Shown in pieces: positions 29,063 to 59,860 of a DNA stretch of 64,000 bases; position 1 is the first letter of the stretch; each line of letters opens with the position of its first letter. The stretch is from NCBI GenBank assembly GCA_965209055.1, contig OZ242374.1, forward strand, positions 2,048,001 through 2,112,000. Reading direction: 5' to 3'. The notes beneath the pieces are model-generated. The model worked only from the letters and a program-made list of their open reading frames with translations, ran no database searches and was not told where the DNA came from. The position numbers were made by a program, and so were the translations under genes. Source of the DNA: Acidobacteriota bacterium (GTDB lineage Bacteria; Acidobacteriota; UBA6911; RPQK01; JAJDTT01).

Positions 29063-29137
29063 GGAGGGGGGACGGTTAGTCCCCCACTCTTCCGCGTTAC
29101 CACGGAATAGCGTGAAGGGGGGCTTTCCGCCTCCCCC
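29063..29137. repeat. REP doublet (GGAC-GGTTA-GTCC family)
   Basis: GGAGGGGGGACGGTTAGTCCCCC plus degenerate partner GGGGGGCTTTCCGCCTCCCCC. Confidence 0.65.
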
Positions 29138-44693: not shown

Positions 44694-44819
44694 GGGCGGT
44701 TGGAAGGGCGATTGGAAGGGCGATTTCCAATCGCCCCCTCTTCAACGCCAAATTGTCACGTCGGAGTCCGGCGGCTGGAAACCGCCGTTCCAATCCGGCG
44801 GTTGGAAACCGCCGCCCCT
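44694..44819. repeat. REP cluster at the imuB/dnaE2 junction
   Basis: GGAAGGGCGATTTCCAATCGCCC plus two GGCGGYTGGAAACCGCCG units. Confidence 0.8.
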
Positions 44820-47800
44820 CAGCCCTACGTCCCCCTCTGGTGCAAGAGCAACTACTCCTTCCTGGAGGGGGCCAGCCACCCCGAGGAACTGGTGGAGGCC
44901 TGCCGGGAGCAGGGGCTTTCCGCCCTGGCCCTCACCGACCGCAACGGGGTGTACGGGATCGTCCGCGCCCACGTCCGCGCCCGCCGCCTGGGCGTCCACC
45001 TGATCGTGGGCTCCCAGGTCGACCTCCGGGACGGATCGGAGCTTCTGCTGCTGGTCCAGGACCAGGAGGGCTACCGCAATCTCTGCCGCCTGTTGACCGG
45101 CGGGCACCTCCGTTCCTCCAAGGGGGAGTGCCGGCTGGATTGGCGGGAGGTCTGCCGGCACAGCCCCGGCCTGATCGCCCTCTGGGGGATTCCGCCGCCA
45201 GACTTCGGATCCTGCGCCCGGACCGAACCGGAACCTGTCCTGGAGCGGCTCCAAGCCGCTTTTCAGGATCGCCTCCACGTCTTGATTCCCAGGCACCGCC
45301 GGGCGGAGGAGGTGATGCGGGAGGCCAGGCTCCGGGAGTTGGCGGACCGCTTCGGGCTGCCCACGGTGGCCGCCGTGGAGGTGCTCTACCACTGTCCCGG
45401 CCGCCGCCGCCTGCAGGACGTCCTGACCTGCATCCGGGAAGGAGTGACCCTGCCCGCGGCCGGCCGCCTCATCCGGCCCAATGATCAGCACGCCCTGAAG
45501 AGTCCGGACGATCTGGCCCGCCTCTTTGCCGACGATCCCGAGTCGGTCAAGCGGACCCGTGAAGTGGCCGCCCGCTGTTCCTTCTCGCTCCAGGAACTGC
45601 GTTACCGCTATCCGCTGGAACGCCTGCCGGAAGGAATGGACTCCAGCCGGTACCTGCGCCGGCGGACCTTCGAAGGAGCCGAGCGCCGCCTGGGAGGGAA
45701 GTTCCGCAGCCAGGTCCCGCAGTTGCAGAAGGAACTGGACCTGATCCGGGAGCTGGAGTACGAGGGCTATTTCCTGACCATGCACGAGATCGTCGAGTAC
45801 TGCCGCCGCCACGGCATCCTCTGCCAGGGCCGGGGGTCGGCCGCCAACTCCACCGTCTGCTTCGCCCTGGGAATCACCAGCGTGGACCCGACCCAGGTGG
45901 ACCTCCTCTTCGAGCGTTTTCTGTCCCGGGAGCGGGCCGAGCCGCCCGACATCGACCTGGACATCGAGCACAACCGCCGGGAAGAGGTGATCCAGCACGT
46001 GTACCGGAAGTACGGGCGCGACCGCGCCGCCATGGTGTCCAACGTGGTCCGTTACCGCTACCGGTCCGCCATCCGGGAAGTGGGAAAGGTGCTGGGAGTC
46101 TCGGCCACCAGCCTGGACCGTCTGGCCAAGCTGGTTTCCCACGAGCGCTGGGGTGAAGAACTGGTGGGACAGGCAGGACTCGACTCCCGGAGCCCGGCCC
46201 TGGGCCACCTGGTGAATCTGGTGCAGGAGATCCAGGATTTTCCCCGCCATCTCTCCATCCATCCCGGCGGCTTCCTGCTGGGCCACCGGCCCGTTCACGA
46301 CCTGGTGCCCATCGAGAACGCCTCCATGGAGGGCCGGACCGTCATCCAGTGGGACAAGGAGGACGTGGAACAGGCGGGCCTGTTCAAGGTGGACCTGCTG
46401 GGGCTGGGCGCCCTCACCCATCTGCACCTCTGCTTCGATCTCCTGCGCCGGCACCGCCGCCGGAGTCTCTCCCTGGCCACCCTCCCCAGGGAGGATTCAG
46501 CCACCTTCGACATGGTCTGCCGCGCCGATACGGTGGGGGTGTTCCAGATCGAGAGCCGGGCCCAGATGGCCATGCTGGGCCGCCTCAAGCCGCGCAACTA
46601 CTACGACCTGGTGATCGAGATCAGCATCGTCCGTCCCGGACCCATCACGGGAGGCATGGTGCATCCCTACCTGCGGCGGCGCAAAGGGGAGGAAGCGGTC
46701 GAATATCCCCATCCCTGTCTCATCCCCGTCCTGAAGAAGACCCTGGGGATTCCCCTGTTCCAGGAGCAGGTGATGTAACTGGCCATGGTGGCCGCCGACT
46801 ACACGCCGGGCGAGGCCGACCAGTTGCGGCGGGACATGGCGGCCTGGCGGCGTTCGGGACGGATCGAGCGGCACCATGAAAAGCTGGTGTCCCGCATGGT
46901 AAGGAAGGGAATCCGGAAGGAGTTCGCCGAGCGCGTCTTTCAGCAGATCCGTGGATTCGGCGACTACGGTTTCCCCGAGAGCCATGCCGCCAGCTTTGCC
47001 CATATCGCCTACGCCACCGCCTATCTCAAGTGCCACTATCCGGCGGAGTTCGCCTGCGCCCTGCTGAACGCCCAGCCCATGGGGTTCTACTCTCCCTCCA
47101 CCATCGTCAACGACGCCCGGATTCATGGGATCGGGATTCACCCCGTCAGCATTCTCGAAAGTGGCTGGGACTGCAGCCTGGTCCCGGCTCCGGCCGGTCC
47201 CGGACAGCCCGCCAAGTTCGCGGTCCGCATGGGGTTGCGCTACGTCAAGGGGATGGGAGAGGGGGACTGGGACGGATTGGACGAAGCCGCCCGGCAATCC
47301 CCCTTCAGCGATCTCCCGGACGTCGTCCGGAGGAGCGGACTCCGCCAGGACAAGCTGGAGACCCTGGCCGAGGCCGGCGCCTTCGAGTGCTTCGGCCTGG
47401 ACCGCCGGAGCGCGCTCTGGCAGATCCAGGGCCTCGCCGGCCGGCGGCCACCCCCATTGCCGTTGAGCAACCGCGCTCCATCTCCCTCCTTCCCGCCTCT
47501 AAACCAGTTGGAGAGCATCGTCTGGGACCATCGGGTCACCAGCCACAGCTCCCAGGCCCACCTCCTGAAACCGCTGCGGCCCGTTCTGACCGCCTGGGGA
47601 CTGCCCACCGCCCGCCAACTCAACCGGATGCCGGACGGCCGCCGCGTCCGCTACGCGGGCATGGTCATCTGCCGCCAGCGCCCGGGGACCGCACGGGGCG
47701 TCACCTTCATGACCCTGGAGGACGAGACGGGGTTCGTGAACCTGGTCATCTGGCAACAGACCTTCCAGCGCTATTCCGTCCTGGCCAAAACCCTCTCCTG

Positions 47801-47921
47801 CATGGGGGTCACCGGCAACCTTCAGGTGGCGGAGAGAGTCACCCACCTGGTGGTCGACAAGATCTGGAGACCCAAGCTGGACAAAACCTCAATCCGCCTC
47901 AAAAGCCGAGACTTCCAATAG
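44700..47921 (+). pseudogene. dnaE2: Error-prone DNA polymerase DnaE2 (ImuC) with an in-frame TAA at 46776-46778
   Basis: [43 protein letters not shown]-terminal SRDF. Confidence 0.93.
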
Positions 47922-47930
47922 GAGCGGGGA

Positions 47931-47968
47931 CTGTTAGTCCGGTGCTCTGTCCAACTGAGATACGGGGT
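47931..47968 (-). other. tRNA 5'-half relic (Arg-like) forming the left attachment site
   Basis: ACCCCGTATCTCAGTTGGACAGAGCACCGGA-CTAACAG: acceptor 5' strand, D-arm and 5' anticodon stem; no T-arm follows. Confidence 0.7.
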
Positions 47969-48007
47969 TGATCCTGTCTTTTCAATAGGTTATCCCGATG
48001 CTCCCCT

Positions 48008-49096
48008 CTAATCATTCCTCCTATTTCCTGCCCGTTGCCTGTTTGCTGCCGGTCCCATTTGTGAGTCTTCGGTAGCCTGTGCCTCCCGAATGCTGGCGAG
48101 TGCATGAGAACTGACGTAACCCGCGTAGCGCATGGTCGTGCTGATCGACGAGTGTCCCATCAGCTTCTGCACCGTCCTCACGTCCACACCCTGCATCAGC
48201 CAATGGCTGCACCGGAATCGTCTCAGGTCATGAAATCCGACCTTCAACCCCACCCGCTCGGCGGCCCGGCGCAATGGCTTGTCCGGATTCACCCATTTCG
48301 TCCCCGTCCGGCTGTTGACGAAGACGTAAGGGATGTTCAGGTAGCGAACCAGCCCGGCCAGATATCCAGCAGCGTACTTCGAGAGCGGAATCTCCCTCGG
48401 CTCGTCGTTCTTGGTGAACTCCACCCATAGCAGCCTCCGGGATAGGTCCACCCGTTTCCAGGTGAGCGACAACGCTTCGCCTTTCCGTATCCCCGTCTCG
48501 CCGATCACCGCAACCATGGCTTGCAGGTAAGGGTTGTCCACCGCCGCGACCAGGTCGCGGAACTGTTGAACCGTCAAGGGCCGGAAGACCTTCTTGGGCT
48601 CCTTCAGTTTGGGGAACCTCACAAGCGGGTGCGTGTCGATTTCCCCGCACTCCAGCGCGTAGGAAAACAGCTTGCTGAGGGCGGCAATGTCGCGGTTCAC
48701 CGTGGCCAGCTGGACCTGCCCCTTACGTTTCGCGACGTAGCGGTGGAGGTCCTTGCGCTGGAACTCCTTCAGGGGAATGTTCCCCAGCATGGCGTTGAGG
48801 CTCTTGAACGAGAGCCTGTACCGGCGCAAAGAGCGCAGACGAGGTTTGCAGTACTCCTCGAAGAAACGCTCGTAGAAGCTCCGGACCGTCCAGACGGTGC
48901 GGTTCCCACCGGCGAGCTCCCGCTTGAGCTGCTTCCAGGTGCCGTCCAGGATGCTGGACTCGATTCGTGTTTGAAGCGCCTGTGCGCTCCGGTAGTTGGG
49001 GGCGTACATTCGGAGCCGACCGGATCCATTCGGCCAGTACTTGCTGACGACGAAACGTCGTCTCCCCCGGCGATCCTTCACCTTGTAGATGCCCAT
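48008..49096 (-). CDS. int: Tyrosine recombinase/phage integrase
   Basis: AGGAGGAG RBS; TGIRKGE, TKN, HDLRR, MGHS, TMRY. Confidence 0.95.
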   Translation of the reverse strand: MGIYKVKDRRGRRRFVVSKYWPNGSGRLRMYAPNYRSAQALQTRIESSILDGTWKQLKRELAGGNRTVWTVRSFYERFFEEYCKPRLRSLRRYRLSFKSLNAMLGNIPLKEFQRKDLHRYVAKRKGQVQLATVNRDIAALSKLFSYALECGEIDTHPLVRFPKLKEPKKVFRPLTVQQFRDLVAAVDNPYLQAMVAVIGETGIRKGEALSLTWKRVDLSRRLLWVEFTKNDEPREIPLSKYAAGYLAGLVRYLNIPYVFVNSRTGTKWVNPDKPLRRAAERVGLKVGFHDLRRFRCSHWLMQGVDVRTVQKLMGHSSISTTMRYAGYVSSHALASIREAQATEDSQMGPAANRQRAGNRRND

Positions 49097-49738
49097 GCAT
49101 CTCCTCCTTTCTGGATCCGGGTTCTTCACCGTGGGGCAAATCGTACCACGGCTCCAGAGAGAACCGGTGAATCTCTCTTCTTTCCCGCAGGAAGTCAGTA
49201 AATTCAGTTCACGGATTCCACCGCCATCTATCCCGCCATCCAGACAGAGGCCGGGGCCGCCAGGACCACCAGGGGCGCGTCTTCCGACTCCGGAGCCGGG
49301 CTGATCTCGCCACCGGGGGGCCATCTTCCAGGGCCGAGCGAGTATCCCGGAAGCGCCTCCGAGTCGCCCAAGTCCACCAAGGCGACAGAGCCGGGCCACT
49401 GGGAGGCGGACCTTCACCCTGACGGATCGGTTCGGCTGGCTCATCGGCGCGCTTCTCCTCCGGGCCTGGGGTTCCAGGGGGACGGTCGAGACCCCCTGGC
49501 TGGCCTCTGCCGGCGACACGCGTCCGCGTGGCCCCGAAGAGTAAGCCTCATTGATACGACAGACGCTCCATATTCGGTCCGGATTCCGTCTTGTTCCCCG
49601 AATTGGGGAAACCTTACTGAGAAGCTGGTCCTCTTTGCCGATGAGCGAGTCGAAGCTCGGCCTGGCCCACGACAAGACAGTCACGGGTCAAGGAGCTACG
49701 GACCACCTTGGTTACATGGAAGATGGTATATTTTCTCA

Positions 49739-50677
49739 ATGTTGAGCAAGGGCAGAGGCTCGCTTGTCGCGCAACTCCAAAGGGAAGTCCTCGACTCCAG
49801 CGTTCCCATTTCAGACATCCTGCGGAAGGCGAAGGTCCTCGCCACCCTGTTGAAAAGCGAGGAGTTCAAGCGTTGGGTTGACGCCGAGCTTAAGGGCTAC
49901 GCTAGCGCTGACGACCTCCCAGACTACCGCAAGTTCCGCCCCGTCAACCTCGGGACATTCGCCGGCTTCAATAAGGTGTTCAGAAACGTCCCGGTTCCCG
50001 TTGCCCTCCTCCCGGACGACATCCGCGAGTTCGCCACGAGAATGGAGATCCGGTACGGGGTCGGAGAAATTGAGGCTTCAGCAATTCAGGCAGAAAACGA
50101 TACGCTCCGGCTCCAGTGGCCTGCTGAGGCGGTAATGCTAGCCCGAGAGCACGTTCCGATGTCGGATGGAAGCGTGCTCGTCGAGGCGTGGCAGCCATTC
50201 TCCCAAAGCGAGTTTGTCGGCATCCTCAACCAGATCCGCAACCACCTTCTCGACTTCCTCCTGGAACTGCAACAGATTAATCCCGATGTGCTGGAATCGG
50301 AGGACGCACTCCGCGCCGTTTCCGGTGAGAAGGTACAGAGCGTCATTCAAACCATCGTCTATGGCAATGAGAATACCGTTGCGACGGGAACGGAGTTCAC
50401 CCAAACCGTCACGCGGAAAGTGGTTTCCGGAGACACGCAATCCCTCATTGACCACCTGCGCAGCGTCGGCCTTGATAGAGACTCGCTTGTTGAGCTTGAA
50501 ACCGCTATTGAGCAAGACGGTGACCGGCAACAGAAACCACTCGGCAAGAATGTGAAGTCCTGGATAGGGAAGATGGTTGTCAAGGCGATGGATGGAACCT
50601 GGAAGGTCGCCATGGCTACAGCCCCAGACCTTCTGAAAGCGGCACTGTCCCAATTTTACGGGGGGATTGAACTCTAA
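49739..50677 (+). CDS. AbiTii-domain protein
   Basis: LQREVLDSSVPISDILRKAKVLA...WVDAELKGY...LPDYR. Confidence 0.82.
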   Translation: MLSKGRGSLVAQLQREVLDSSVPISDILRKAKVLATLLKSEEFKRWVDAELKGYASADDLPDYRKFRPVNLGTFAGFNKVFRNVPVPVALLPDDIREFATRMEIRYGVGEIEASAIQAENDTLRLQWPAEAVMLAREHVPMSDGSVLVEAWQPFSQSEFVGILNQIRNHLLDFLLELQQINPDVLESEDALRAVSGEKVQSVIQTIVYGNENTVATGTEFTQTVTRKVVSGDTQSLIDHLRSVGLDRDSLVELETAIEQDGDRQQKPLGKNVKSWIGKMVVKAMDGTWKVAMATAPDLLKAALSQFYGGIEL

Positions 50678-51278
50678 CAGGGGACACTCCGCCATTTCCT
50701 TCGGGTAGACACAACGCTCTCCCCCAGTTCCCATGATGAACTTTGGATTGCCCACGTGGGGGGAGAACACTCCCAGGTGTCCCGACCATTCGAGCCCGTG
50801 AGCGACCCAGGAATCGACGATCGGTCTGAGGTCGCGTCCTGCCCGACGGGACCAACCCCCTATGGGAGTACCGCTTCTCCGCCCCCCTGACCCCCTCAGA
50901 GCGCCTATGTTGGCCTGACAGATATAGGCTCTTTGACGTCGTCCAGGCTCCGCTAGCGTCTCGCAGTGGAAAGAAACCTCTCTGCACGAGTACAGCCCGT
51001 TCTGTGGCCCAGGAACTCTGGGACTTGGCCGGGAAGTTCCACTTGGTCAATTTGGACGTCCACGAGGCCCTACGCGCCTACTTGAGAGGGAAATCGCGCC
51101 CCGATTTGCCGCGCAGGACTGGACGAGTCTCTTCACTCGCGCAGCGTCTTGGAACCGCTCCGGATCTGGCGGACGCCATCCTAGTCCCTGACTCGGTCAA
51201 GGGATAGACGTTAGAATGTGGCGTTGCGGTCAAGATTATGAATCCGATGGCGATCATGGAAAGGAAGCCCAAGAAGAA

Positions 51279-51611
51279 ATGGAAATTCAATCACCAAGGA
51301 TAGACTTCAGCGAGTTGTTCAAGATCAGCTTCGAGCGTGACAATCATCGTTGCGTTTACTGCTGCCGTGACATGCTAACCGACTTCGATACATTCATGAC
51401 AGCTCGAACCACCCGGCTTATTCCTCCTGCTCAAGGAGGCGGAAGCGACCCCGATAATTTCGTGATCTCCTGCACCCCTTGCCATATTTTGAAGGGGCAA
51501 TTTCTTCCAGAAGGAGAGACACGCACGAAACGCATCGTTTCGGCTCGAAAACACATCATGGAACGCCGAGCTGAGCGAATGGAAGAATTCGCGCTGTGGA
51601 CTCACCCTTGA
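51279..51611 (+). CDS. HNH endonuclease-like protein (degenerate active site)
   Basis: FERDNHRCVYC...GGGSDPDNFVISCTPCH..KG. Confidence 0.75.
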   Translation: MEIQSPRIDFSELFKISFERDNHRCVYCCRDMLTDFDTFMTARTTRLIPPAQGGGSDPDNFVISCTPCHILKGQFLPEGETRTKRIVSARKHIMERRAERMEEFALWTHP

Positions 51612-52045
51612 AGGCCGACCTCGGCGCACCGGAGGATGGCCGGGAAGGGTGCTTAGGGATCGTTTTTTGCCAGTGTGTCAGGGGTTTTCGGGGTCCGGTC
51701 GGAAGCGCCACCGGAAAGAACTCGACGATTCCATTTATCGTGCACTGAACCCCCACCCGCTGTATTCGGTCATCAATCTCCAGGTCCGGTCCCGGAGGAC
51801 CGACCCGTCGCAAGATCCAATCACCGAAACCCTCACTTCGCCGTCGAGGGATCGGTCCCACTCCTCGAAGACCTGTCTCGACAAATTTCTGAAGTGAGAT
51901 CTGCGGCCGTGATCACCAAGCTGACCGCCAGATGCGTCCTGTGGTTTCAAGCGGGGAGGAATGACGACATACTCCCGCCGCCACGAAAAACCGAGTCACC
52001 TGAAGGCTGTAGAATCCGATAACGGCCGTCCGGAAGGAATAGAAC

Positions 52046-52903
52046 ATGCCGCATACTATTCTTGATCTCCGCACTTGGGAGGAGTTCGAGGAAAAGAAAT
52101 TGGAAGATCTCCAAGAGAAAGCAGAGGAGGAGCGCCGCCCAGCCCTTCTGTTTCGCGGTCAAGGACACTCTTGCTGGCCTGTCACAACAACGCTCGAACG
52201 ATCGCTAGATGGACAAGAGATGTCCTTCCTGGGCTACTACGAGTCCATCTATCGGGCAAAACCCAAGATTGAAAGCTATCCCGAACGTCCCTCCTCAAAG
52301 AGTTGGGATGTCCCGCCCCCTAAAAGGTTAGGACACAAGCTTGGGAATCACGAGCCTTTTGCGCGCTTTACGGAGGAAGATTTTAGAACGTGGGGTCTAG
52401 TTTGGACCTACATGGTGCACTTGCGCCATCATGGGTTTCCCTCACCTTTCCTCGATTGGACCCGTTCACCCTATATCGCGGCCTTTTTCGCTTTCCGCCA
52501 GCCGATCAGGGACGTGGAAAAGGTATCCATTTTCGTTTATCGCGAAAAACCAAATCCCACTTATCCCAAGGTTTTCGCTAGTGACCGGCCGGAGATACGC
52601 GTCCTTCCGAAACAGTACGTCCGAACGAATCGAAGGCACTTCCTTCAGCAATGCGAGTACACAATGTGCATGCAAAGAATGTGCATGCAAAATAGGGACT
52701 GCGATTGGTCCTTTGTGCCGCATGAAGGGGTATTCGAGCGTGACGATCCAAATGTAGACATCCTCTGGGAGTTCAACCTCCCCGCGACGGAGCGTCTAAA
52801 GGTTTTGAGGTTGCTTGACAGTTTTAACCTAAATGCATTCTCGCTGTTTGGGTCTGAGGAAAGCCTCATGGAGACGATGGCTTTTCGAGAGCTGGGACAA
52901 TAG
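52046..52903 (+). CDS. FRG domain protein
   Basis: LLFRGQ, HHGFPSPFLDWTRSPYIAAFFA, NAFSLF. Confidence 0.9.
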   Translation: MPHTILDLRTWEEFEEKKLEDLQEKAEEERRPALLFRGQGHSCWPVTTTLERSLDGQEMSFLGYYESIYRAKPKIESYPERPSSKSWDVPPPKRLGHKLGNHEPFARFTEEDFRTWGLVWTYMVHLRHHGFPSPFLDWTRSPYIAAFFAFRQPIRDVEKVSIFVYREKPNPTYPKVFASDRPEIRVLPKQYVRTNRRHFLQQCEYTMCMQRMCMQNRDCDWSFVPHEGVFERDDPNVDILWEFNLPATERLKVLRLLDSFNLNAFSLFGSEESLMETMAFRELGQ

Positions 52904-52980
52904 TTTCCATGAACCTACAGTCCTCGTGGAGGCGGGGGCAACAGATCGAAGCACACGCAGGCCTTGGACGTCTTACTCAA

Positions 52981-55794
52981 TCACTTCCCGGGTTTCGACC
53001 TCTTGCCGCCATGTACAGACGGCTCCGTGCACCATTGATTGCGCAGCAAGTCCAGCGAATTCTCCAAATCCGGATCGAGCTTCAGCACGCTGAACTGGCC
53101 GAAGAGCAGTTCTCTATCCAGGTTCTGGCGCGTGTCGTCGCGATAGGCTTCGTTCGCGGGAAGAAACTTCTTACTCTTGAAGCGAATGAAGATATCTTGG
53201 CAGTGATTCAACTGCTCTTCCGTCAGATCTCGGGGGTCGAGCACCGGAAGGTCGGGAATAGCAGTGATCGTGATTCTCGATCTCCCCGCCTGTTGGCGGG
53301 TTCCCTTCCACCAGTGCATAAGTAGTCCCAATGTTGAGTTGCTCCATAGCAGCAGGGGGATCTCATGCTGCGCATTGTGGGGAATGATGTTCGGCCACGC
53401 TGTGCCACCGAGACACTTCTCCGGCGTGAGGCACATGGCAAGACTCTGGGAATTCAATCGGAAGTCCCTATTGGCGTGCAATCGGGAAGCCGTCCGTAGC
53501 CAGTCTTTAACTGCCTTCCCCTCACATCCCTTTCGTACGTCACCGCAGCAGTCCGGCTGAACATTCAGTTGATGCTCTCTCTTTGCATTGTGTTTCCATA
53601 GCGCGGGATAGGTTGGGATTTCACCGCTGTGGATCGGGCGAATATCGAAGGCACCTCGTGGCGGACCTCCTTTGACGGAAGGCTTGCCGTTGATGTCCAT
53701 GTCGTATAGACCTCGCTCCGCCACGACTTTGAGTGGAACCATGGAGAGCCTTTCCACTCGTGCCCGCCGAGGTAATCGCAGCTTCCCTGCTTGTAGACTC
53801 TGCGCAGCCTCGATAACGCTGGTGAATCGGACGCCAGCAGCCCCTGCATCATGGATGCGGCCCTGAACGGCATTGGCCTTTATGTCTTTCGCGACTAGGG
53901 TGGCTTCCAGCAGGGACGCAGGCCGAGACGTAAAACTGGAGAACATCGTGCAAGGCTTCGTCGAACTCCGCTTGGTCGCCACGACAAGACACTCAGCAAT
54001 GCCCGTATCCGCCGAGAATGCCCTGTCCGTCGATCCCGTCGCGGCAATGGACAAGACATGGATATCGGTGTAGTACCTTTCAAGGCTCTCCCGCGCCCGG
54101 CCCCAGGCCTTGCCTCGGGCCAATGCAAACGGCAGCACCAGCGCCATTACTCCGCCATCCTTCAGCTTACGATGCGCCAAGTCCATGAAGTTCGAGGCGA
54201 GACCTGAATTACCATGGCCAAAATCCGCTTTGACCCTGCTCAGCTTCCTTGACATGGCCTTCTGCTCGTCGGGTGGTGTGTTGAATCCCGCGAAGCTGGG
54301 AACGGGAGTATTGTCCCGGCTCGACCCTGCGTGATTTGTGGGTCGCGTGAACGGTGGATTCATGATTATCAGATCACAAGACTCGCCCTTGACCGAGACC
54401 GAATGCACACTGCTAGTGTCGGACTCCTGTCCACCAATCGATTCGCCGGTGGCGAACAGGGAGTAGACGTGGTTGGCGTCGAGTAGGTCCAGTGAGCCAA
54501 TGTGTGTCGTGCCGCCATCAACGCCGTAGGGCATCGTGTAGATGTTTGTCCTGCCGAATGTCTCTCTCGGGTGGGCACTGGAGAGCATTGAGCAAGTCAG
54601 GTGCGTGGCGGCGGGCATGATGTCCATACCGATCATCGTGCGCTCCATCATGGCGCAGTGCAGATCCAAGTCGTTCCCTCCCGCCCGGCGATACCGGCGG
54701 CAGATGGAGCGCTGCACGGCGGAGAGCAAGGCTCCGGTGCCGCAAGCGAAGTCCGCGATCCTCAAATCCTCGATATCCTCCAGGTTTGACCAGTCCACCG
54801 GCAGGCGTTCCACGGCGAGTTCCGCGAGAAGCGTTGCAGACGGCGGCAGCGTGTAGAAGGTGGCCAGAAACTTGCGGTCAGCAATGAGGGCTTGGAACAT
54901 ACGCCCCGTGAGATCGTGGTAGGTGGTCGCTCCCAGTGAGGCCAGCGAAGCAGCCGTCTCCAGAAGTTGCTCCATCAGGCGCGGCACTAAGGGAGTCTGG
55001 ATCTCCTCAAGCAGCGATGTGGCAATGGAGAAGATCGGCCAGTAATTGACCTTCAGAATCTCCCCCCAGACAAGGATCAACCTGCGTTTGTGCATCCCCG
55101 CGCCCTCAAGTTCGGACATTGGCGGAACACCGTCTTGTCCCTCGATGGAGGCGTGGAACACGAATGCGGAAGTGAGGATCGCAGAGACCATCCGCAAGGT
55201 CTGCTCACCGGAGCTTTGCATGAGCTTTTGGGCGAGGCGCTCCTGCACGTACGCTGTGGAATGCAACGACAGTAGACCAGCGCATGCTTTGACGGTCGCT
55301 TCGAGCATTCGCACCCCTGTTGCAAGCTTCCGCTCCGACAGGGACAGGGCCTCAATGGCATCTGCTAGATCGTCTACTGACCCAGTGAGATATTCTGACT
55401 CCGGCCAGCGGGAATGATGGTCATCAGTGTGCAGGTGGTGCGTGGCGTAGCGCAGCTTGGAGTTCTCTATGGCAGCCAGCGAACCGGTCTTCAGTTCGAC
55501 CGGAAACACGACGGAGAGCGCGCTTTCGATGGTATCCCCGGTGGAATCCAGCTTCCGCCCGAGTCGGCCAATGGCTTCGTTCTCGACCGTCCGAGCGGGA
55601 TAGAACTCAGTCTCGACAGCGACCGGCTGGCGGGATGGCGTATGGATCAAGATATCGATCTGGCCGGAGCCTCCCTGCAACACGCCAGTCCGTTCCGCAT
55701 GGACAGACGTGTCATCCCAGAGCGGGTGGCGTTTCATCAGGGCGCGGGCCAATGCGCCGTTTGCCTGGGGCTCGGTATTTCGGGGTAGGCTCAT
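52981..55794 (-). CDS. Type IIG-like fused restriction endonuclease / N6-adenine methyltransferase
   Basis: N-terminal IDILI...VAVETEF (PD-(D/E)xK-like), FYT, DFACGTG motif I, NPPF motif IV, C-terminal TRD region. Confidence 0.85.
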   Translation of the reverse strand: MSLPRNTEPQANGALARALMKRHPLWDDTSVHAERTGVLQGGSGQIDILIHTPSRQPVAVETEFYPARTVENEAIGRLGRKLDSTGDTIESALSVVFPVELKTGSLAAIENSKLRYATHHLHTDDHHSRWPESEYLTGSVDDLADAIEALSLSERKLATGVRMLEATVKACAGLLSLHSTAYVQERLAQKLMQSSGEQTLRMVSAILTSAFVFHASIEGQDGVPPMSELEGAGMHKRRLILVWGEILKVNYWPIFSIATSLLEEIQTPLVPRLMEQLLETAASLASLGATTYHDLTGRMFQALIADRKFLATFYTLPPSATLLAELAVERLPVDWSNLEDIEDLRIADFACGTGALLSAVQRSICRRYRRAGGNDLDLHCAMMERTMIGMDIMPAATHLTCSMLSSAHPRETFGRTNIYTMPYGVDGGTTHIGSLDLLDANHVYSLFATGESIGGQESDTSSVHSVSVKGESCDLIIMNPPFTRPTNHAGSSRDNTPVPSFAGFNTPPDEQKAMSRKLSRVKADFGHGNSGLASNFMDLAHRKLKDGGVMALVLPFALARGKAWGRARESLERYYTDIHVLSIAATGSTDRAFSADTGIAECLVVATKRSSTKPCTMFSSFTSRPASLLEATLVAKDIKANAVQGRIHDAGAAGVRFTSVIEAAQSLQAGKLRLPRRARVERLSMVPLKVVAERGLYDMDINGKPSVKGGPPRGAFDIRPIHSGEIPTYPALWKHNAKREHQLNVQPDCCGDVRKGCEGKAVKDWLRTASRLHANRDFRLNSQSLAMCLTPEKCLGGTAWPNIIPHNAQHEIPLLLWSNSTLGLLMHWWKGTRQQAGRSRITITAIPDLPVLDPRDLTEEQLNHCQDIFIRFKSKKFLPANEAYRDDTRQNLDRELLFGQFSVLKLDPDLENSLDLLRNQWCTEPSVHGGKRSKPGK

Positions 55795-55973
55795 GAGCGT
55801 CTCCGCGCCACGGGCTCACACGCTTTGCCGCAGCGGGGACAGTCCACGCGGGCTCCTTGGTAGCCGCAGTCCGGACAGTGATAAGAGTTTCGGTTCCGGA
55901 GCCGATCCAGAGCCAGCTTACTGATGGTCTCCATTCGTTCCATGTGGATGTCCGAACTGCTCATACAGTTCAT
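55791..55973 (-). CDS. Small zinc-ribbon protein
   Basis: CPDCG...CPRCG; ATGA overlap with the R-M gene. Confidence 0.55.
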   Translation of the reverse strand: MNCMSSSDIHMERMETISKLALDRLRNRNSYHCPDCGYQGARVDCPRCGKACEPVARRRS

Positions 55974-56897
55974 TCTGCCAGAACGGTCTGCCTAGTCCAG
56001 AATCAGTTCTCGGAGCGGAGCGTTTCTTCTGTGGTCTTTCTCCGGGCCTTCCCGCAGGGAGACTTGGGACGGGAGCGACCCTCCCAGGGGGTGCTGCGCA
56101 AATGTGAATTGCGCAACACTCCCGCGCCCGCACCGGGCAGCAAAAAGGGGGGGTCGCTCCCGTCCACCTCCATTTTCCCCGTGCGGCCATCCGGTGGCCG
56201 GAAATGGGTCCGTAACTGACTGAAAGGAAAAAAGATCGGGGAAAGCGTCTTTGTGAACGACTGGGACCGCTTTTTGTGAATCCACCCCCTTTGTCCCATT
56301 CACATCCCGGATCGGGCGCGAAACCCTCTTTTCGCACTGCCGAAACGAGCCTCCATTGGCCCTTGCGACTGCCAAGTGCGGAACTGTCTCGGCAGACCGT
56401 CCCGTAGGGTTCGCAATACGGCCCACCTACCCCGACCCGATAGTCTCGCCATCCGGCGCAGGCCCGCTCGAAGCTCATGGACGCCTGGATCGGTTCGGGT
56501 GTCCAGGCTCCCGAGATTCCCCGCACCGAGCGCGTCGGATCAATGGATGGAAACGGGTTCCAGCCTTTATGGCCATTGACCTGCACGACAAAATGACGCG
56601 CAAGTCTGCGCCGGTCGTTCGGCAGCCCCTCAACCAAAGGGTGCCCTCACTGCACTGGATCTCGACATATGCTCCTCCTTGGTTTCTGAACCAGCTGTGC
56701 TGGCGGCAAAAAGACATCGCTTTCCGCAAGGTAGCAGATCAGACCAGCCGGTCCAGTTTCATGGAAAACTGCCGCCGGACGTTTCCTCTTTATAGCAGGG
56801 CTGGAATCGGCACCGGTGGGACAAGGGGTCCTGAACCACGCGCCCGTCTCGGTCGGCCGGCGTCCTCCAGATCCGGTCCGGCGAGGGGAACGATTGT

Positions 56898-56984
56898 GCC
56901 CGGGTGGCGAAATCGGCAGACGCGCAGGACTTAAAATCCTGTGGAGGGTCACCTTCCGTGTGGGTTCGACTCCCACCCCGGGCA
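56898..56984 (+). tRNA. tRNA-Leu(UAA)
   Basis: GCCCGGG/CCCGGGC acceptor, CAGGA-CTTAAAA-TCCTG anticodon arm, long variable arm, GGTTCGACTCC; CCA not encoded. Confidence 0.96.
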
Positions 56985-57156
56985 CTCCCCATGACCGCCG
57001 GAACCGGAAACGTAACCACGGAGGATCGCCTGATCTCCCCCAAGATTCTGGAGCACCACAGACAGACTCACACCCGCTTCAGTTGTCCTACCTTCATGGG
57101 AAACTGGGAGCGTGACGCAGGATCACAATCTCGCCTCCAGTCCAAAGGACCACCCG

Positions 57157-57924
57157 ATGAGTGACAACAAAGCCCTTGATCTGCTCGGAATAAAGGGACT
57201 TAGCGATTCCATGAAAATCACCACGCAGGGTTTCATAGACGGGGCAGCTGCCTTTTTGTCTCGCCTGTGTCTTCCCGCTGCGGAAGAGTTTGGTCTGGCG
57301 CTCCGTGATCGCATCTCCGCATGGCGAGCAAGAAACGCTGTCCGAATGCTCAACAAGGCAAATAAGCGCTATCTGTCGAATGATCCGAATCCGGCAGACG
57401 CATTGAGCCCGCGCCTGGTGCATCTTGCCATTGAAGAGGCGTCTTGGATCGACGACGAACAGATCCAAGATATGTGGGCAGGCCTATTGGCGTCAGCGAC
57501 ATCGATAGAAGGCCGCTCTGACGAAAATTTGATTTTAATGAACCTCTTGAAACAGCTCTCATCGCTTGAGGTCAAGATGTTGCGGATTGCGGTCGAGAAA
57601 GCACACAAGCATGTTGCCCAGCACGGCTTGATTATGCCTGATCGTATGATTATTCCCACCAACAAGCTAAGAGATGTCTTCGGCGTTCAGGACCTGCAGC
57701 GCATTGATCGTGAGCTTGACCATCTCCGCGAACTTGGTCTAATTGGCTGGAGTTGGGGTGGGGGAATAGACGTCGGTGGTAGTTACACTGACCTGACTCC
57801 ATCACCGTTAGCGATGCACCTGTACGTTCGGGCACAGGGTTCTCGTCTGTCGCCGGCGACGTATTGGGATCTACCACCATCAACAGCGGAAGGCACTCTG
57901 GATGGGGCAACGTCTTCCGGGTGA
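57157..57924 (+). CDS. Abi-alpha (DUF4393) family protein
   Basis: EEASWIDDEQIQDMWAGLLASA...LLKQLSSLE...LRELGLI. Confidence 0.78.
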   Translation: MSDNKALDLLGIKGLSDSMKITTQGFIDGAAAFLSRLCLPAAEEFGLALRDRISAWRARNAVRMLNKANKRYLSNDPNPADALSPRLVHLAIEEASWIDDEQIQDMWAGLLASATSIEGRSDENLILMNLLKQLSSLEVKMLRIAVEKAHKHVAQHGLIMPDRMIIPTNKLRDVFGVQDLQRIDRELDHLRELGLIGWSWGGGIDVGGSYTDLTPSPLAMHLYVRAQGSRLSPATYWDLPPSTAEGTLDGATSSG

Positions 57925-58146
57925 ACCTAATCGGAACAGCAATCTGGGGCGTGGATTGGAATACGAAAAAGTAGATGCCGGTTTGTCCGGTTGGGCGGAT
58001 CGGAGATGAGGAAAGGGCGGTGACTGTCCTTCACCGAAGTCCGATCTGGCCCTCCATTTTTTTCGGCCCATTCCCGACAGTGCACGGCCAACATCTGCCG
58101 TTCATTTCGCAATTTTCTTGGGGTCTTTTTACAGCATCCAGTCTTG

Positions 58147-58266
58147 CTAATTCAGGCACAGAAGATAGATGTAGGCGTCCCGTTCGGCCAGCGCCGTCAC
58201 GTGGACGCTGATCGATCCCACGTAGTCGCTGACGACAATCGAAATGGATGGAAGACGGTCCTTCAT
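58147..58266 (-). pseudogene. Relic of a phage DUF1376/YdaU-like gene
   Basis: MKDRLPSISIVVSDYVGSISVHVTALAERDAYIYLLCLN* resembles the E-x-GAY-x-x-LL-C motif; stop falls where W is usual. Confidence 0.45.
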
Positions 58267-58491
58267 GGGTCGCGTTCAGCATTGGCAATTGGTCAACAGA
58301 CTGAATTCACAATGTTTCCGAGCAGCGGAACGGAATGGAGAAAGGAAACACGGAAGCGCGAAATCCGATGCCTGTTTGTTGCCTGTTCAGCACGCTAAAC
58401 ATAGGGAGTCAACCACTTTACCGATTCGGCGAAGAACCCGGTAATCCGTTGAAAACGTTAACCTTCGTTAGTTTTTGACTTTGGGGCAGTC

Positions 58492-58542
58492 GGGACTGTT
58501 AGTCCCCGACTGGGGGGTGCAGGGGGGCGATAGCCCCCCTCC
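58492..58542. repeat. Right part of the interrupted REP doublet
   Basis: GGGACTGTTAGTCCCCG and inverted GGAGGGGGGCTATCGCCCCCCT. Confidence 0.75.
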
Positions 58543-58657
58543 GCGCTTCAAACAACCGAAAAAACCCCGGTCCATCGCAATTCCCCAAACCCCACCTCTT
58601 CCCTCTTTAACTCTTCCCTCTTTGCTCTCTCCCCTTTACTCTCTTCCCAGCACCACC

Positions 58658-59860
58658 ATGCCCCCACCGCCCTCCAACAGACGAAGCTTCCTCACCCACC
58701 TGAGCGCCGGCGCCCTCCTCTCAGCCGCGCCGCCCCTCCGGGCCGCCTCCGAACCGGAGTCCGGCTACCACCCCCAAGACTTGGGCCTCGACCCCGCCCG
58801 CCTCGACCGCGCCTACGCCCTGGTCCAGCGCATGCTCTCCCCCCGCCCCGAATACGGCGCCGCCATCCTGGCCGGCCGGCGCGACCGCATCCTCCCTCCC
58901 CGCGCCTTCGGCCGAATGGGTACCCTCGACGCTCCGGAAGTGCGTCCCGATACCATCTTCCTCATCGCCTCCTGCACCAAGCCCATCGTCGCCAGCGCCG
59001 CCTGCCTCCTGATCGAACGGGGCCTTCTGGAACTTGACCAGCCCCTCCACGAGATCATTCCGGAAATCGCGGAAGAGCAGCACGGAATCCGCCTCATCCA
59101 CCTCATGACCCACACCTCCGGTTTCGGCTCCATCCCCCGCAACCAGGAATTCCGGGCCACCCGCCAACCTCTGGACCGGTTCCTCCGCGAGATGTTCAAA
59201 CGGCGGACGTCCGACTTCGCGCCCGGCAAAGGAGTCAAGTACTGCAACGCCGGCTTCCTCCTCCTGAGTGAAGCGATCCGCCGCGCTAGCGGCATGTCCA
59301 CCCCCGATTTCCTGAAAAAGGAGTTCTTCCGGCCCCTGGGTATGCCCGACTCGTTCCTGGGACGGACCGACCAGGACCGGAGCCGGATCTCAGACTGTGT
59401 CCTGCCTCCCGAGCTGGCGGCGGCGGTGAGCAACTGGAACACCGACTACTTCCACCGCCTGGCCAACCCCTGGGGCGGGATCTTCTCCACGGTGCGCGAC
59501 TACAGCCGGTTTCTCCAGATGCTCCTCAACGGCGGAGAGTACCGGGGAGTTCGCGTTTTCAGCCCGGCCACGGTCCGGATGATGACCGGCAACCAGATCC
59601 CGCGGCTTCCCGGCTTGAGCCAGGCTCACCGGATCGCCCACGCCACGGGCCTGGGTTGGCAACTGCGGGACAACGGGCACTTCAAATTCATGGGAAGCCT
59701 GGTCTCGCCGCAGTCCTACGGCCACTACGGCGTGACGGGCTGCTCGGTGTGGGCCGACCCGGAGACCGGCCTCTTCATGACCCTGTTCAGCAACAAGCCC
59801 TACAGCGACCGGGAGCTGGGAATCGTCTCCAACGCCGTCGCCTCCTCCTTGGTGGAATAA
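58658..59860 (+). CDS. Tat-exported serine hydrolase (beta-lactamase/AmpC fold)
   Basis: NRRSFL, IASCTK (SxxK), LMTHTSG, YCN, GHYG. Confidence 0.9.
   Translation: MPPPPSNRRSFLTHLSAGALLSAAPPLRAASEPESGYHPQDLGLDPARLDRAYALVQRMLSPRPEYGAAILAGRRDRILPPRAFGRMGTLDAPEVRPDTIFLIASCTKPIVASAACLLIERGLLELDQPLHEIIPEIAEEQHGIRLIHLMTHTSGFGSIPRNQEFRATRQPLDRFLREMFKRRTSDFAPGKGVKYCNAGFLLLSEAIRRASGMSTPDFLKKEFFRPLGMPDSFLGRTDQDRSRISDCVLPPELAAAVSNWNTDYFHRLANPWGGIFSTVRDYSRFLQMLLNGGEYRGVRVFSPATVRMMTGNQIPRLPGLSQAHRIAHATGLGWQLRDNGHFKFMGSLVSPQSYGHYGVTGCSVWADPETGLFMTLFSNKPYSDRELGIVSNAVASSLVE

Follow-up and report, generated by a model that had tools for sequence, protein, structure and literature searches.

We analysed a 64,000-nt stretch of the genome of an Acidobacteriota bacterium (assembly GCA_965209055.1, contig OZ242374.1, positions 2,048,001 to 2,112,000; hereafter the window) and found that a 10,565-bp low-GC island at 47941-58505, flanked by a 14-bp direct repeat, is inserted in a hairpin of a repetitive extragenic palindromic (REP) doublet. 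The island carries a tyrosine integrase gene at one end and belongs to a family of 26 elements in the same genome (G000). With a probability of about 0.88, we read it as a defence island inserted into the REP hairpin by its integrase, whose lineage was retargeted from the tRNA-Arg(TCT) gene and was amplified like a transposon.

Insertion of the island into a REP doublet

The initial annotation had reported the 14-bp repeat at 47927 and 58492 and claimed that removal of the interval rebuilds a REP doublet. Indeed, exact copies of GGGACTGTTAGTCC lie at 47927-47940 and 58492-58505, with 0.03 expected per window, and a copy with one mismatch is found at 29069. The GC content is 52-62% inside the interval, whereas it is 65-69% in the flanks. 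The left flank ends with ...TAGGAGCG, the TAG of which is the stop codon of dnaE2, and the right copy of the 14-mer continues into CCGACTGGGGGGTGCAGGGGGGCGATAGCCCCCCTCC; the second hairpin of the doublet, in the right flank, is GGGGGGCGATAGCCCCCC. The 14-mer alone is weak evidence of insertion because the 6.08-Mb genome contains 44 exact copies of it. The case for insertion is carried by the empty sites in relatives and by the conserved ends of the element.

The 3' end of dnaE2 is present in eight genomes of the same genus at 91-93% identity, and in seven of the eight it is followed by the serine-hydrolase gene within about 330 bp. Between the two genes, G001, G002 and G003 have a REP doublet. 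The doublet of G002 is intact and reads ...aataggagcg GGGACTTTTAGTCC CCGATTGGGGGGTATAGGGGGGCGCTAGCCCCCCTCC, the first hairpin, GGGACTTTTAGTCC, differing from the window hairpin by one loop base. REPs are absent between dnaE2 and the hydrolase gene in G006 and G007, additional REPs or a short insert are found there in G004 and G005, and G008, seen in a 2.8-kb contig piece, has a different continuation after dnaE2. The hairpin type at the orthologous site varies between species. No integrase, cargo or tRNA-Leu was found at the dnaE2 site in the eight genomes. G016, a genome flagged as unpublished, does not underlie any of the statements made here. The relatives thus join 47940 to 58506, and therefore the tRNA-Leu gene of the island and its flanks are not syntenic core sequence. 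These comparisons establish the insertion and its boundaries. They also supply the empty site, dnaE2, REP doublet and hydrolase gene, that the initial annotation had predicted, and the two outcomes that it had named as fatal to its proposal, relatives that fail to join the flanks or a tRNA-Leu gene that belongs to the syntenic core, were not observed. The target differs from the Islander type, in which a tRNA or tmRNA gene is split and restored, since the empty site is a REP doublet and has no tRNA.

A family of elements and its attachment sites

Searching the genome with tblastn yielded 26 full-length integrase copies of 88-100% identity. About 70-100 nt downstream of each copy lies a tRNA-Arg-like arm, followed by the core, and a correctly oriented far arm lies 2.6-25 kb away for all 26 genes (the 122-bp far arm has 31 genomic copies of 75-91% identity). 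The 26th element runs off the contig end and was left out of the size and repeat measurements. The other 25 range from 2,684 to 25,066 bp and total 258,875 bp, or 4.26% of the genome. In the 2.7-kb elements, the integrase is the only recognisable intact gene and the remainder is made of the two arms and relics. All 26 copies are at REP hairpins and none is at tRNA-Arg(TCT) of this genome, which is unoccupied. The exact 14-mers divide into 32 that are element junctions and 12 that are unoccupied hairpins.

Two side observations concern the arrangement of these sites. At G000:C1:172931 there is an unoccupied hairpin whose left flank recurs over at least 45 bp at one half-element junction and whose right flank recurs over at least 75 bp at the junction of a different element, the loci involved being G000:C1:172931, 484587 and 789046; this points either to a duplication of the flanks or to elements that recombined with each other and so rearranged them. 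At 474740-484584, a pair of far arms is turned towards each other, and no integrase lies in the space enclosed.

The hairpins themselves are short GC-rich palindromes that are multicopy and extragenic, as are REPs and bacterial interspersed mosaic elements. Hairpins preceded by GGAG fall into many stem-and-loop families, the largest having 42, 33 and 28 copies, and one 18-mer has 81 copies here versus 1-17 in relatives. Copies are found directly after stop codons (...TAGGAGG...), and their extragenic location was judged by eye on those flanks only. In many flanks, including the one at 29063-29137 of the window, the REP doublet begins at or overlaps a TAG stop (…TAGGAGGGG…), giving a Shine-Dalgarno-like AGGAGG after the gene end. 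The presence of REPs does not hinge on that of the elements. In G001, the 14-mer occurs 18 times although the integrase has no match there. G004 lacks the 14-mer, but 11 integrase matches were obtained in it and its elements use other core types. The att types found in a genome therefore mirror the REPs that it offers.

Direct repeats of 7-15 bp bound all 25 measurable elements. Read in integrase orientation, they are GGACTAACAGTCCC (T1; seven elements, the window island included), GGGACTGTTAGTCCC (T2; eight measured elements and the 26th at the contig end), GATTTCCAATC (T3; four elements), GATTTCTAATC (T3b; one), TTTCCTA (T4; three), GGATTTCCTA (a T4 variant; one) and TTTCCAA (T5; one). The attP of every element follows one pattern, namely a tRNA-like D-arm, (A/C)(C/G)GGA, 7 nt and TCCC(A/G), and the target REP hairpins read GGGGA-CTAACAG-TCCCC, GGCGA-TTTCCAA-TCGCC and GGGGT-TTTCCTA-CCCCC. 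In four elements, three of T4 and one of T5, the identity between attP and attB is down to the 7 nt TTTCCTA or TTTCCAA, and these sit exactly at the anticodon-loop position relative to the tRNA-like arm. Such a segment has the size and place of the tyrosine-recombinase overlap at anticodon-centred sites, as these are described in the available text of the Islander study (PMC4383910). There are six 7-nt cores in this genome, each of which equals a different REP loop. One hairpin is used both ways, by T1 in one orientation and by T2 in the other; the T1 overlap, CTAACAG, is the reverse complement of the T2 overlap, CTGTTAG, and only the central three bases distinguish the two. The T2 loop was also considered as that of tRNA-Asn(GTT), and this was rejected, as the arm has no match to tRNA-Asn of the genome and its best matches are tRNA-Arg genes.

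The end anatomy agrees with that of Islander-type islands, with an integrase at one end and direct repeats that form the att core at both. An AACAGGC motif occurs at -116 from the integrase-side end in 25 of 25 elements, some having it also at -127/-128 or -109, and the far arms of the 25 elements have it at +105 and +116 in the same orientation. These repeats, about 105-128 bp from the ends, are putative arm-type binding sites. A guide RNA as in IS110 was looked for and rejected, since no internal copy of the 7-nt overlap co-varies with the core type; the one recurrent internal TTTCCTA, in four T4 elements about 740 bp from the integrase-side end, was placed within the integrase gene.

Copying of the elements has been recent. 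Over their whole 2,767 bp, the element at G000:4495147 and the one at G000:6054142 show 100% identity while their flanks differ, and two T1 elements share 2,968 identical bases. Integrase-side flanks of elements in relatives map to this genome in nine of ten cases; seven junctions could be compared, and all seven sites are unoccupied here, two of them with the same REP hairpin intact. Logan contigs of four runs over 46500-59800 contain no joint that skips from 47940 to 58506, which has no weight either way because contigs drop rare variants. In run X1, the match of one contig breaks off at 47933 and that of a second begins at 58512, both contigs having 28 letters beyond the match, and these contig ends could represent the empty site in a relative. 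Two regular expressions found no tandem or attP-like junctions in the genome.

Origin of REP targeting and rival explanations

Where, then, did the REP targeting come from? On the minus strand, the integrase end of the island matches positions 4-34 of tRNA-Arg(TCT), and the identity ends at the anticodon; the arm has no T-arm or acceptor 3' half. The corresponding arm of a sister T1 element (G000:783006) finds its best match among the 68 tRNAs of the genome in tRNA-Arg(tct) (29/31, E 2.7e-9). We surveyed integrase homologues across 76 genomes of the order, G000 included. Downstream of the integrase gene of 85% identity (L050, G003) is a complete tRNA-Arg(TCT) in the same orientation, and at 72% identity (L051 and L052) are tRNA-Arg TCT and TCG, again in the same orientation. 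At 41-54% identity (L055 and L057; L056 and L067), tRNA-Arg(TCT) or its 3' fragment lies downstream in the opposite orientation, and other loci, of 34-47% identity, have tRNA-Thr, tRNA-Leu or other tRNA-Arg genes there. An integrase tree was built in the quick mode of IQ-TREE from 57 rows, leaving out the short rows L034, L071 and L074. All 36 REP-associated integrases, which come from several species, form one clade in the Shimodaira-Hasegawa-like approximate likelihood ratio test (SH-aLRT 95), with L050 as its sister (97) and then L051 plus L052 (100). The REP clade is nested among relatives at tRNA-Arg, and REP targeting thus arose out of the targeting of tRNA-Arg, probably a single time. 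The REP loop TTTCTAA is one base and TTTCCAA two bases from the tRNA-Arg loop CTTCTAA, a series that may offer a stepwise path from the tRNA gene to the REP.

The relative in G003 illustrates the presumed starting point. Its far arm is 46 kb from the integrase and abuts the displaced positions 1-42 of tRNA-Arg(TCT), ending just past the anticodon loop, so that the ancestral attP carries the 5' part of the tRNA and rebuilds the gene. In the Islander table, 2083 of 3919 islands have an anticodon-centred attP and 159 of 3919 have a 5' fragment of the tRNA gene (PMC4383910); the G003 relative has the rarer 5'-fragment arrangement, and its tRNA gene is split and restored. The 47-kb element of G003 encodes proteins like the type IV coupling protein (T4CP), VirB8, TrbI and VirB4, so it is a conjugative element. 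The window island aligns with it at three places, the integrase gene, the far arm and a 320-bp segment termed module B. Separately, G000 has a complete conjugation cluster at G000:C1:1,827,745-1,840,756 whose T4CP and VirB4-like proteins share 90% and 93% identity with their counterparts in the G003 element; the surroundings of that cluster contain no integrase gene of the REP-element family. The initial annotation had read the minus-strand integrase end as the 5' part of a tRNA, had proposed that a tRNA(Arg)-type integrase used or adapted to a REP, with many chromosomal targets as a consequence, and had suggested mapping the att sites of homologues. The match of 28 of 31 bases, the REP clade within relatives at tRNA-Arg genes and the 26 elements of this genome all support it. 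The proposal was in fact too modest, for it did not include the use of several REP loops, the use of one hairpin in both orientations or the descent from a conjugative element.

We propose the following course of events. The ancestral integrase, encoded by a conjugative element, would have used the 7-nt anticodon loop of tRNA-Arg(TCT) for crossover, and the element would have brought along the 5' part of the tRNA so that the gene was rebuilt. After the change of target, the anticodon stem would be replaced by the GC-rich stem of the REP and the 7-bp overlap provided by the REP loop, strand exchange presumably bracketing these 7 nt, and all that is left of the tRNA 5' part next to the core is a decaying vestige. 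Since REPs occur in many copies, the element would behave like a site-specific transposon. The attP overlaps of sub-lineages match different REP loops, and new overlaps would have arisen by recombination with near-matching loops. At the window locus, the integrase of the island would have inserted 47941-58505 into the first hairpin of the doublet, just past the dnaE2 stop.

A bolder extension is possible, although we consider it rather unlikely. The integrase may recognise hardly more than a short GC-rich inverted repeat with 7-nt spacing and take its specificity from the 7-bp overlap of attP, rewritten via a resolved heteroduplex, in which case the element would be a self-retargeting transposon for any REP family in either orientation. 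The series CTTCTAA (tRNA-Arg), TTTCTAA, TTTCCAA and TTTCCTA and the mirror pair CTGTTAG / CTAACAG would then be footprints of overlap rewriting, and integrases of 83-97% identity with at least ten natural overlaps would be a toolkit for programmable integration.

Several points weigh against the proposed retargeting and amplification. Neither an excised circle nor a read of the empty site nor an act of integration was seen, and catalysis by the integrase is for that reason deduced from the anatomy; no excisionase-like gene was recognised. The tree has SH-aLRT support only and is rooted on 10 self-chosen tRNA-Leu-associated rows. T1 and T2 integrases are intermixed on it, the phylogeny not being cleanly by core type, and copies therefore recombine or switch often. 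The target stems of T4 and T5 (GGGGT/CCCCC) are like the anticodon stem (ACGGA/TCCGT) only as short GC-rich inverted repeats, and the mimicry is there one of geometry and loop, not of sequence. Finally, the genome was assembled from a metagenome as a single contig, its contamination is estimated at 7.4% and the contig ends inside an element, so assembly error at some repeats is possible. That contig end, at G000:C1:6074465-6077182, lies inside the tRNA-like arm of a T2 element and the first bases of the contig do not continue the arm; the contig was probably broken or mis-closed at the repeat.

How do other explanations fare? The two 14-mers might be independent REP copies around vertically inherited DNA, with no insertion at all. 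As exact copies are often clustered, two of them 10.5 kb apart are not improbable alone, but the flanks join without integrase, cargo or tRNA-Leu in seven of eight genomes, the GC content of the interval is lower, and its ends are the conserved arms of 25 other elements, which leaves this account a negligible chance. Secondary-site integration by tyrosine integrases is well known, and a one-off, off-target integration of a tRNA-Arg element at a REP pseudo-att site, with no adaptation, would be eased by REP loops only 1-2 bases away from that of tRNA-Arg. We nevertheless hold it to be very improbable, for 26 of 26 copies are at REP hairpins with tRNA-Arg(TCT) left unoccupied, each sub-lineage has an attP overlap identical to the loop that it targets, the arm is decayed in its tRNA part and in T1 copies stops short of the acceptor end, and the REP-associated integrases are a clade found in several species.

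The integrase could also be a passenger of another mover, be it an HUH transposase of the RAYT type, the transposase of a nested insertion sequence (IS) or homologous recombination between REPs. The genome has two weak Y1_Tnp matches (30.8 and 23.6 bits, cut-off 23), several larger elements contain DDE transposase genes, and flanks common to different sites suggest rearrangements. However, no transposase was found in the window island or the minimal elements, and in the 2.7-kb elements the integrase is the sole intact gene. Boundaries are at the same position relative to integrase-type arms in 25 of 25 elements, the repeat at its shortest has exactly the 7 nt that a tyrosine-recombinase overlap should have, and motif pairs stand about 105-127 bp from both ends as in the arms of a lambda-type attP. 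A different mover is accordingly improbable, if somewhat less so than an off-target event. Causality might finally run the other way, the hairpins being scars or spread copies of the att sites of the elements. Most exact 14-mers are indeed element junctions, and elements and REPs alike are most numerous in this genome. The 14-mers and the REP doublets at the orthologous site of G001 exist there without an integrase match, though, hundreds of GGAG-plus-hairpin repeats with many loop types have mostly never been used by an element, and unoccupied hairpins have no arm sequence; we give the reversed order very little credence. Insertion by the integrase of a retargeted lineage thus remains the reading that we prefer.

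Island genes and comparison with known systems

The features of the window locus are collected in the table. The integrase translation contains TGIRKGE, TKNDEPREIPL, HDLRR and GHSSISTTMRY motifs, and its predicted catalytic domain is that of a tyrosine recombinase, the assignment of motifs to the catalytic residues R-K-H-R-H/W-Y being our own reading. The closest solved structure is 5c6k ('Integrase'; E 2.3e-17), and Xer chains were also matched. From its annotated genes, AbiTii, Abi_alpha, FRG/PDC-S15 and the methyltransferase-like gene, the island would be a defence island. No Pfam match to type IV secretion or coupling genes was found in it, the only trace being a relic of T4CP residues 6-103, and an Rfam scan of 47800-58700 gave no family other than tRNA above threshold. 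Just upstream of the insertion, dnaE2 has an in-frame TAA at 46776-46778 (…FQEQVM*LAM…) where the codon is CAA (Gln) at nine of nine loci in relatives; either a nonsense mutation happened recently or the base was misread in sequencing.

Table. Features of the island and its flanks (coordinates in the window).
Feature	Coordinates	Strand	Evidence
dnaE2-type polymerase gene, left chromosomal flank	44700..47921	+	Translation; orthologues 91-93% identical in 8 same-genus genomes; TAG stop overlaps REP start
Left end of split REP doublet, GGAGCG	47921..47926	+	Same bases precede the hairpin at the G001, G002 and G003 empty sites
Direct repeat copy 1, attL core, REP hairpin 1	47927..47940	+	14-bp repeat common to 58492-58505; minus strand GGA CTAACAG TCC
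Integrase-proximal attP core arm, vestige of tRNA-Arg(TCT) 5' part (positions 4-34)	47936..47967	-	28/31 bases
Tyrosine integrase, 362 aa	48008..49096	-	Pfam Phage_integrase PF00589 92.6 bits, cut-off 27.1; SAM-like N-terminal domains
Candidate arm-type integrase sites, P arm, AACAGGC-type repeats	48030..48050	-	Inside the integrase gene 3' end
AbiTii abortive-infection protein, cargo	49739..50677	+	Pfam 4e-40; PADLOC 2.7e-42
Small HNH-like protein, cargo	51216..51611	+	Weak: Pfam HNH/HNH_5 E ~2e-3, below cut-off
FRG-domain protein, cargo, PADLOC candidate system PDC-S15	52046..52903	+	Pfam FRG 3.7e-16; PDC-S15 2.1e-28
DNA methyltransferase-like protein, 937 aa, cargo	52981..55794	-	PADLOC mad2, MTase_II ~3e-10, PglX 8e-5; Pfam below cut-off only
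Backbone module B	56013..56454	-	105-nt structured core 56067-56171
tRNA-Leu(TAA) gene, cargo or relic	56898..56985	+	ARAGORN; Rfam tRNA 59.8 bits
Abi_alpha abortive-infection protein, cargo	57112..57924	+	Pfam 1.1e-16; PADLOC PDC-S47 2.8e-5
Conserved attP far arm (P' arm)	58369..58491	+	GCCTGTT pair at 58370-58376 and 58381-58387
Direct repeat copy 2, attR core	58492..58505	+	14-bp repeat
Rest of REP doublet: hairpin 1 3' stem, spacer, hairpin 2 (GGGGGGCGATAGCCCCCC)	58506..58542	+	Same sequence at the G001, G002 and G003 empty sites
Serine hydrolase, beta-lactamase family, right chromosomal flank	58658..59860	+	Pfam Beta-lactamase 5.3e-56; orthologous and adjacent to dnaE2 in 7/8 same-genus genomes

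Module B is common to the 2.7-kb minimal elements at 87-93% identity and is present in all minimal elements compared. It maps beside the T4CP gene of the G003 element, and tblastn matches it to T4CP residues 6-63 and 78-103; these matches show it to be a relic of the junction between an unnamed open reading frame (ORF) and the first ~100 codons of the ancestral T4CP gene. An interpretation as a separate non-coding RNA gene was dropped for this junction relic, and an Rfam match to the KDPG-aldolase RNA (31 bits versus a threshold of 54.6) was taken as chance. The 105-nt core has three helices with compensatory changes, one pair being CG in 29, AU in 6 and UA in 2 cases and another UA in 26 and GC in 10, and its minimum free energy is -74.4 versus -45.3 +/- 4.1 for mononucleotide shuffles. 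Of the 64 genomic BLAST matches to module B, no more than about 26 fall within integrase elements; an origin of transfer and a regulatory RNA are both possibilities for the structured core. ARAGORN called two copies of the module odd 85-nt 'tRNA-Val' genes (G000:3841235, 5203736).

The tRNA-Leu(TAA) gene inside the island is the sole tRNA gene in the window. The genome has six tRNA-Leu(taa) genes, four of them near-identical, and each of the three near-identical genes outside the window (G000:C1:477237, 1991443 and 2524782) has, at a distance of about 1.2 kb, a homologue of the unnamed ORF located ahead of T4CP in the conjugative element, which suggests a repeated block derived from a conjugative element. 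In other genera, tRNA-Leu(TAA) is targeted by more distant homologues of the integrase.

Cargo was scanned in the 17 other cargo-bearing elements over 170 ORFs of at least 130 aa, four elements above 20 kb being covered over their first 20 kb. Restriction-modification, GmrSD/Schlafen-type or CRISPR-Cas genes were found in 11 of the 17, and the rest have leucine-rich repeat proteins, nested IS elements or nothing recognisable. To judge from these annotations, the cargo of the family seems to consist mostly of defence genes. The T1 element L089 (G000:C1:3904169-3924168, the first 20 kb of 3904169-3925235) carries type I CRISPR-Cas genes (Cas1, Cas4, Cas3-like, GSU0053/GSU0054). The 20.6-kb element L087 (G000:C1:3374148-3394147) has three further unrelated integrase genes, one with Arm-DNA-bind_3, suggesting another element nested inside.

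Change of integrase target is a long-standing question that has usually been studied via few laboratory mutants. The genus provides a natural retargeting series, with a conjugative element at tRNA-Arg(TCT), close integrase relatives at REPs, at least ten 7-nt cores, both orientations and very recent copies, and this makes the steps of retargeting testable, that is, which integrase residues and att bases matter. The family would be a third enzymatic route into REPs beside the IS3 and IS110 transposases, and it indicates that an integrase element can reach an IS-like copy number, 4.3% of a genome. For this sponge-associated acidobacterium, the REP-targeting elements would be a main vehicle for restriction-modification, abortive-infection and CRISPR-Cas genes, and such islands are invisible to tRNA-based island finders. 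In the open-access literature, supplements apart, we found no tyrosine integrase that targets REPs, and REP targeting was found only for IS elements (PMC1525189, available text). Highly similar integrase genes have been noted in another acidobacterium, with no att analysis in the accessible text of that 2012 review (PMC3469429).

How does the family compare with known systems? It resembles the class 'A' islands and prophages of Islander in having an integrase of the heterobivalent tyrosine type at one end, a tRNA stem-loop attP, a shared 7-nt loop and direct-repeat ends. In contrast to them, its target is a multicopy extragenic palindrome and not a gene, nothing is restored, the tRNA part is vestigial, and there are 26 copies per genome versus one per target. 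Insertion sequences of the IS3 and IS110 families (e.g. ISPpu9, ISPpu10, ISPa11 and IS621) insert into REP hairpins, which offer many safe extragenic sites, according to the text available (PMC1525189) and to abstracts on the IS110 bridge RNA and on ISPpu10. Specific insertion into REP hairpins is shared with them. Those elements, however, use DDE or DEDD transposases, IS110 with a guide RNA, whereas here a tyrosine recombinase would move up to 25 kb of cargo, and in the REP-associated elements no segment outside the core co-varies with the target. The tycheposons of Prochlorococcus, as the accessible part of the preprint describes them, are tRNA-targeting tyrosine-recombinase elements with partial tRNAs at their ends and several elements per genome (bioRxiv 10.1101/2020.12.28.424599). 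The likeness lies in families of integrase elements, partial tRNAs at the ends, defence or adaptive cargo and several elements per genome; unlike tycheposons, whose integrases are in that description each tied to their own tRNA gene, the present family would have moved from tRNA genes to REPs. As in integrative conjugative or mobilizable elements, the island keeps the gene order of the conjugative G003 relative and a relic of the T4CP 5' end, but in contrast to a conjugative element it has no transfer genes of its own. Recombinases acting on hairpin-forming sites are also known from integron attC and from the CTX phage with XerCD. The island shares with these a tyrosine recombinase at a palindromic, hairpin-forming site; it differs in that there is no sign of single-stranded or folded substrates, and its anatomy fits duplex recombination between attP and attB.

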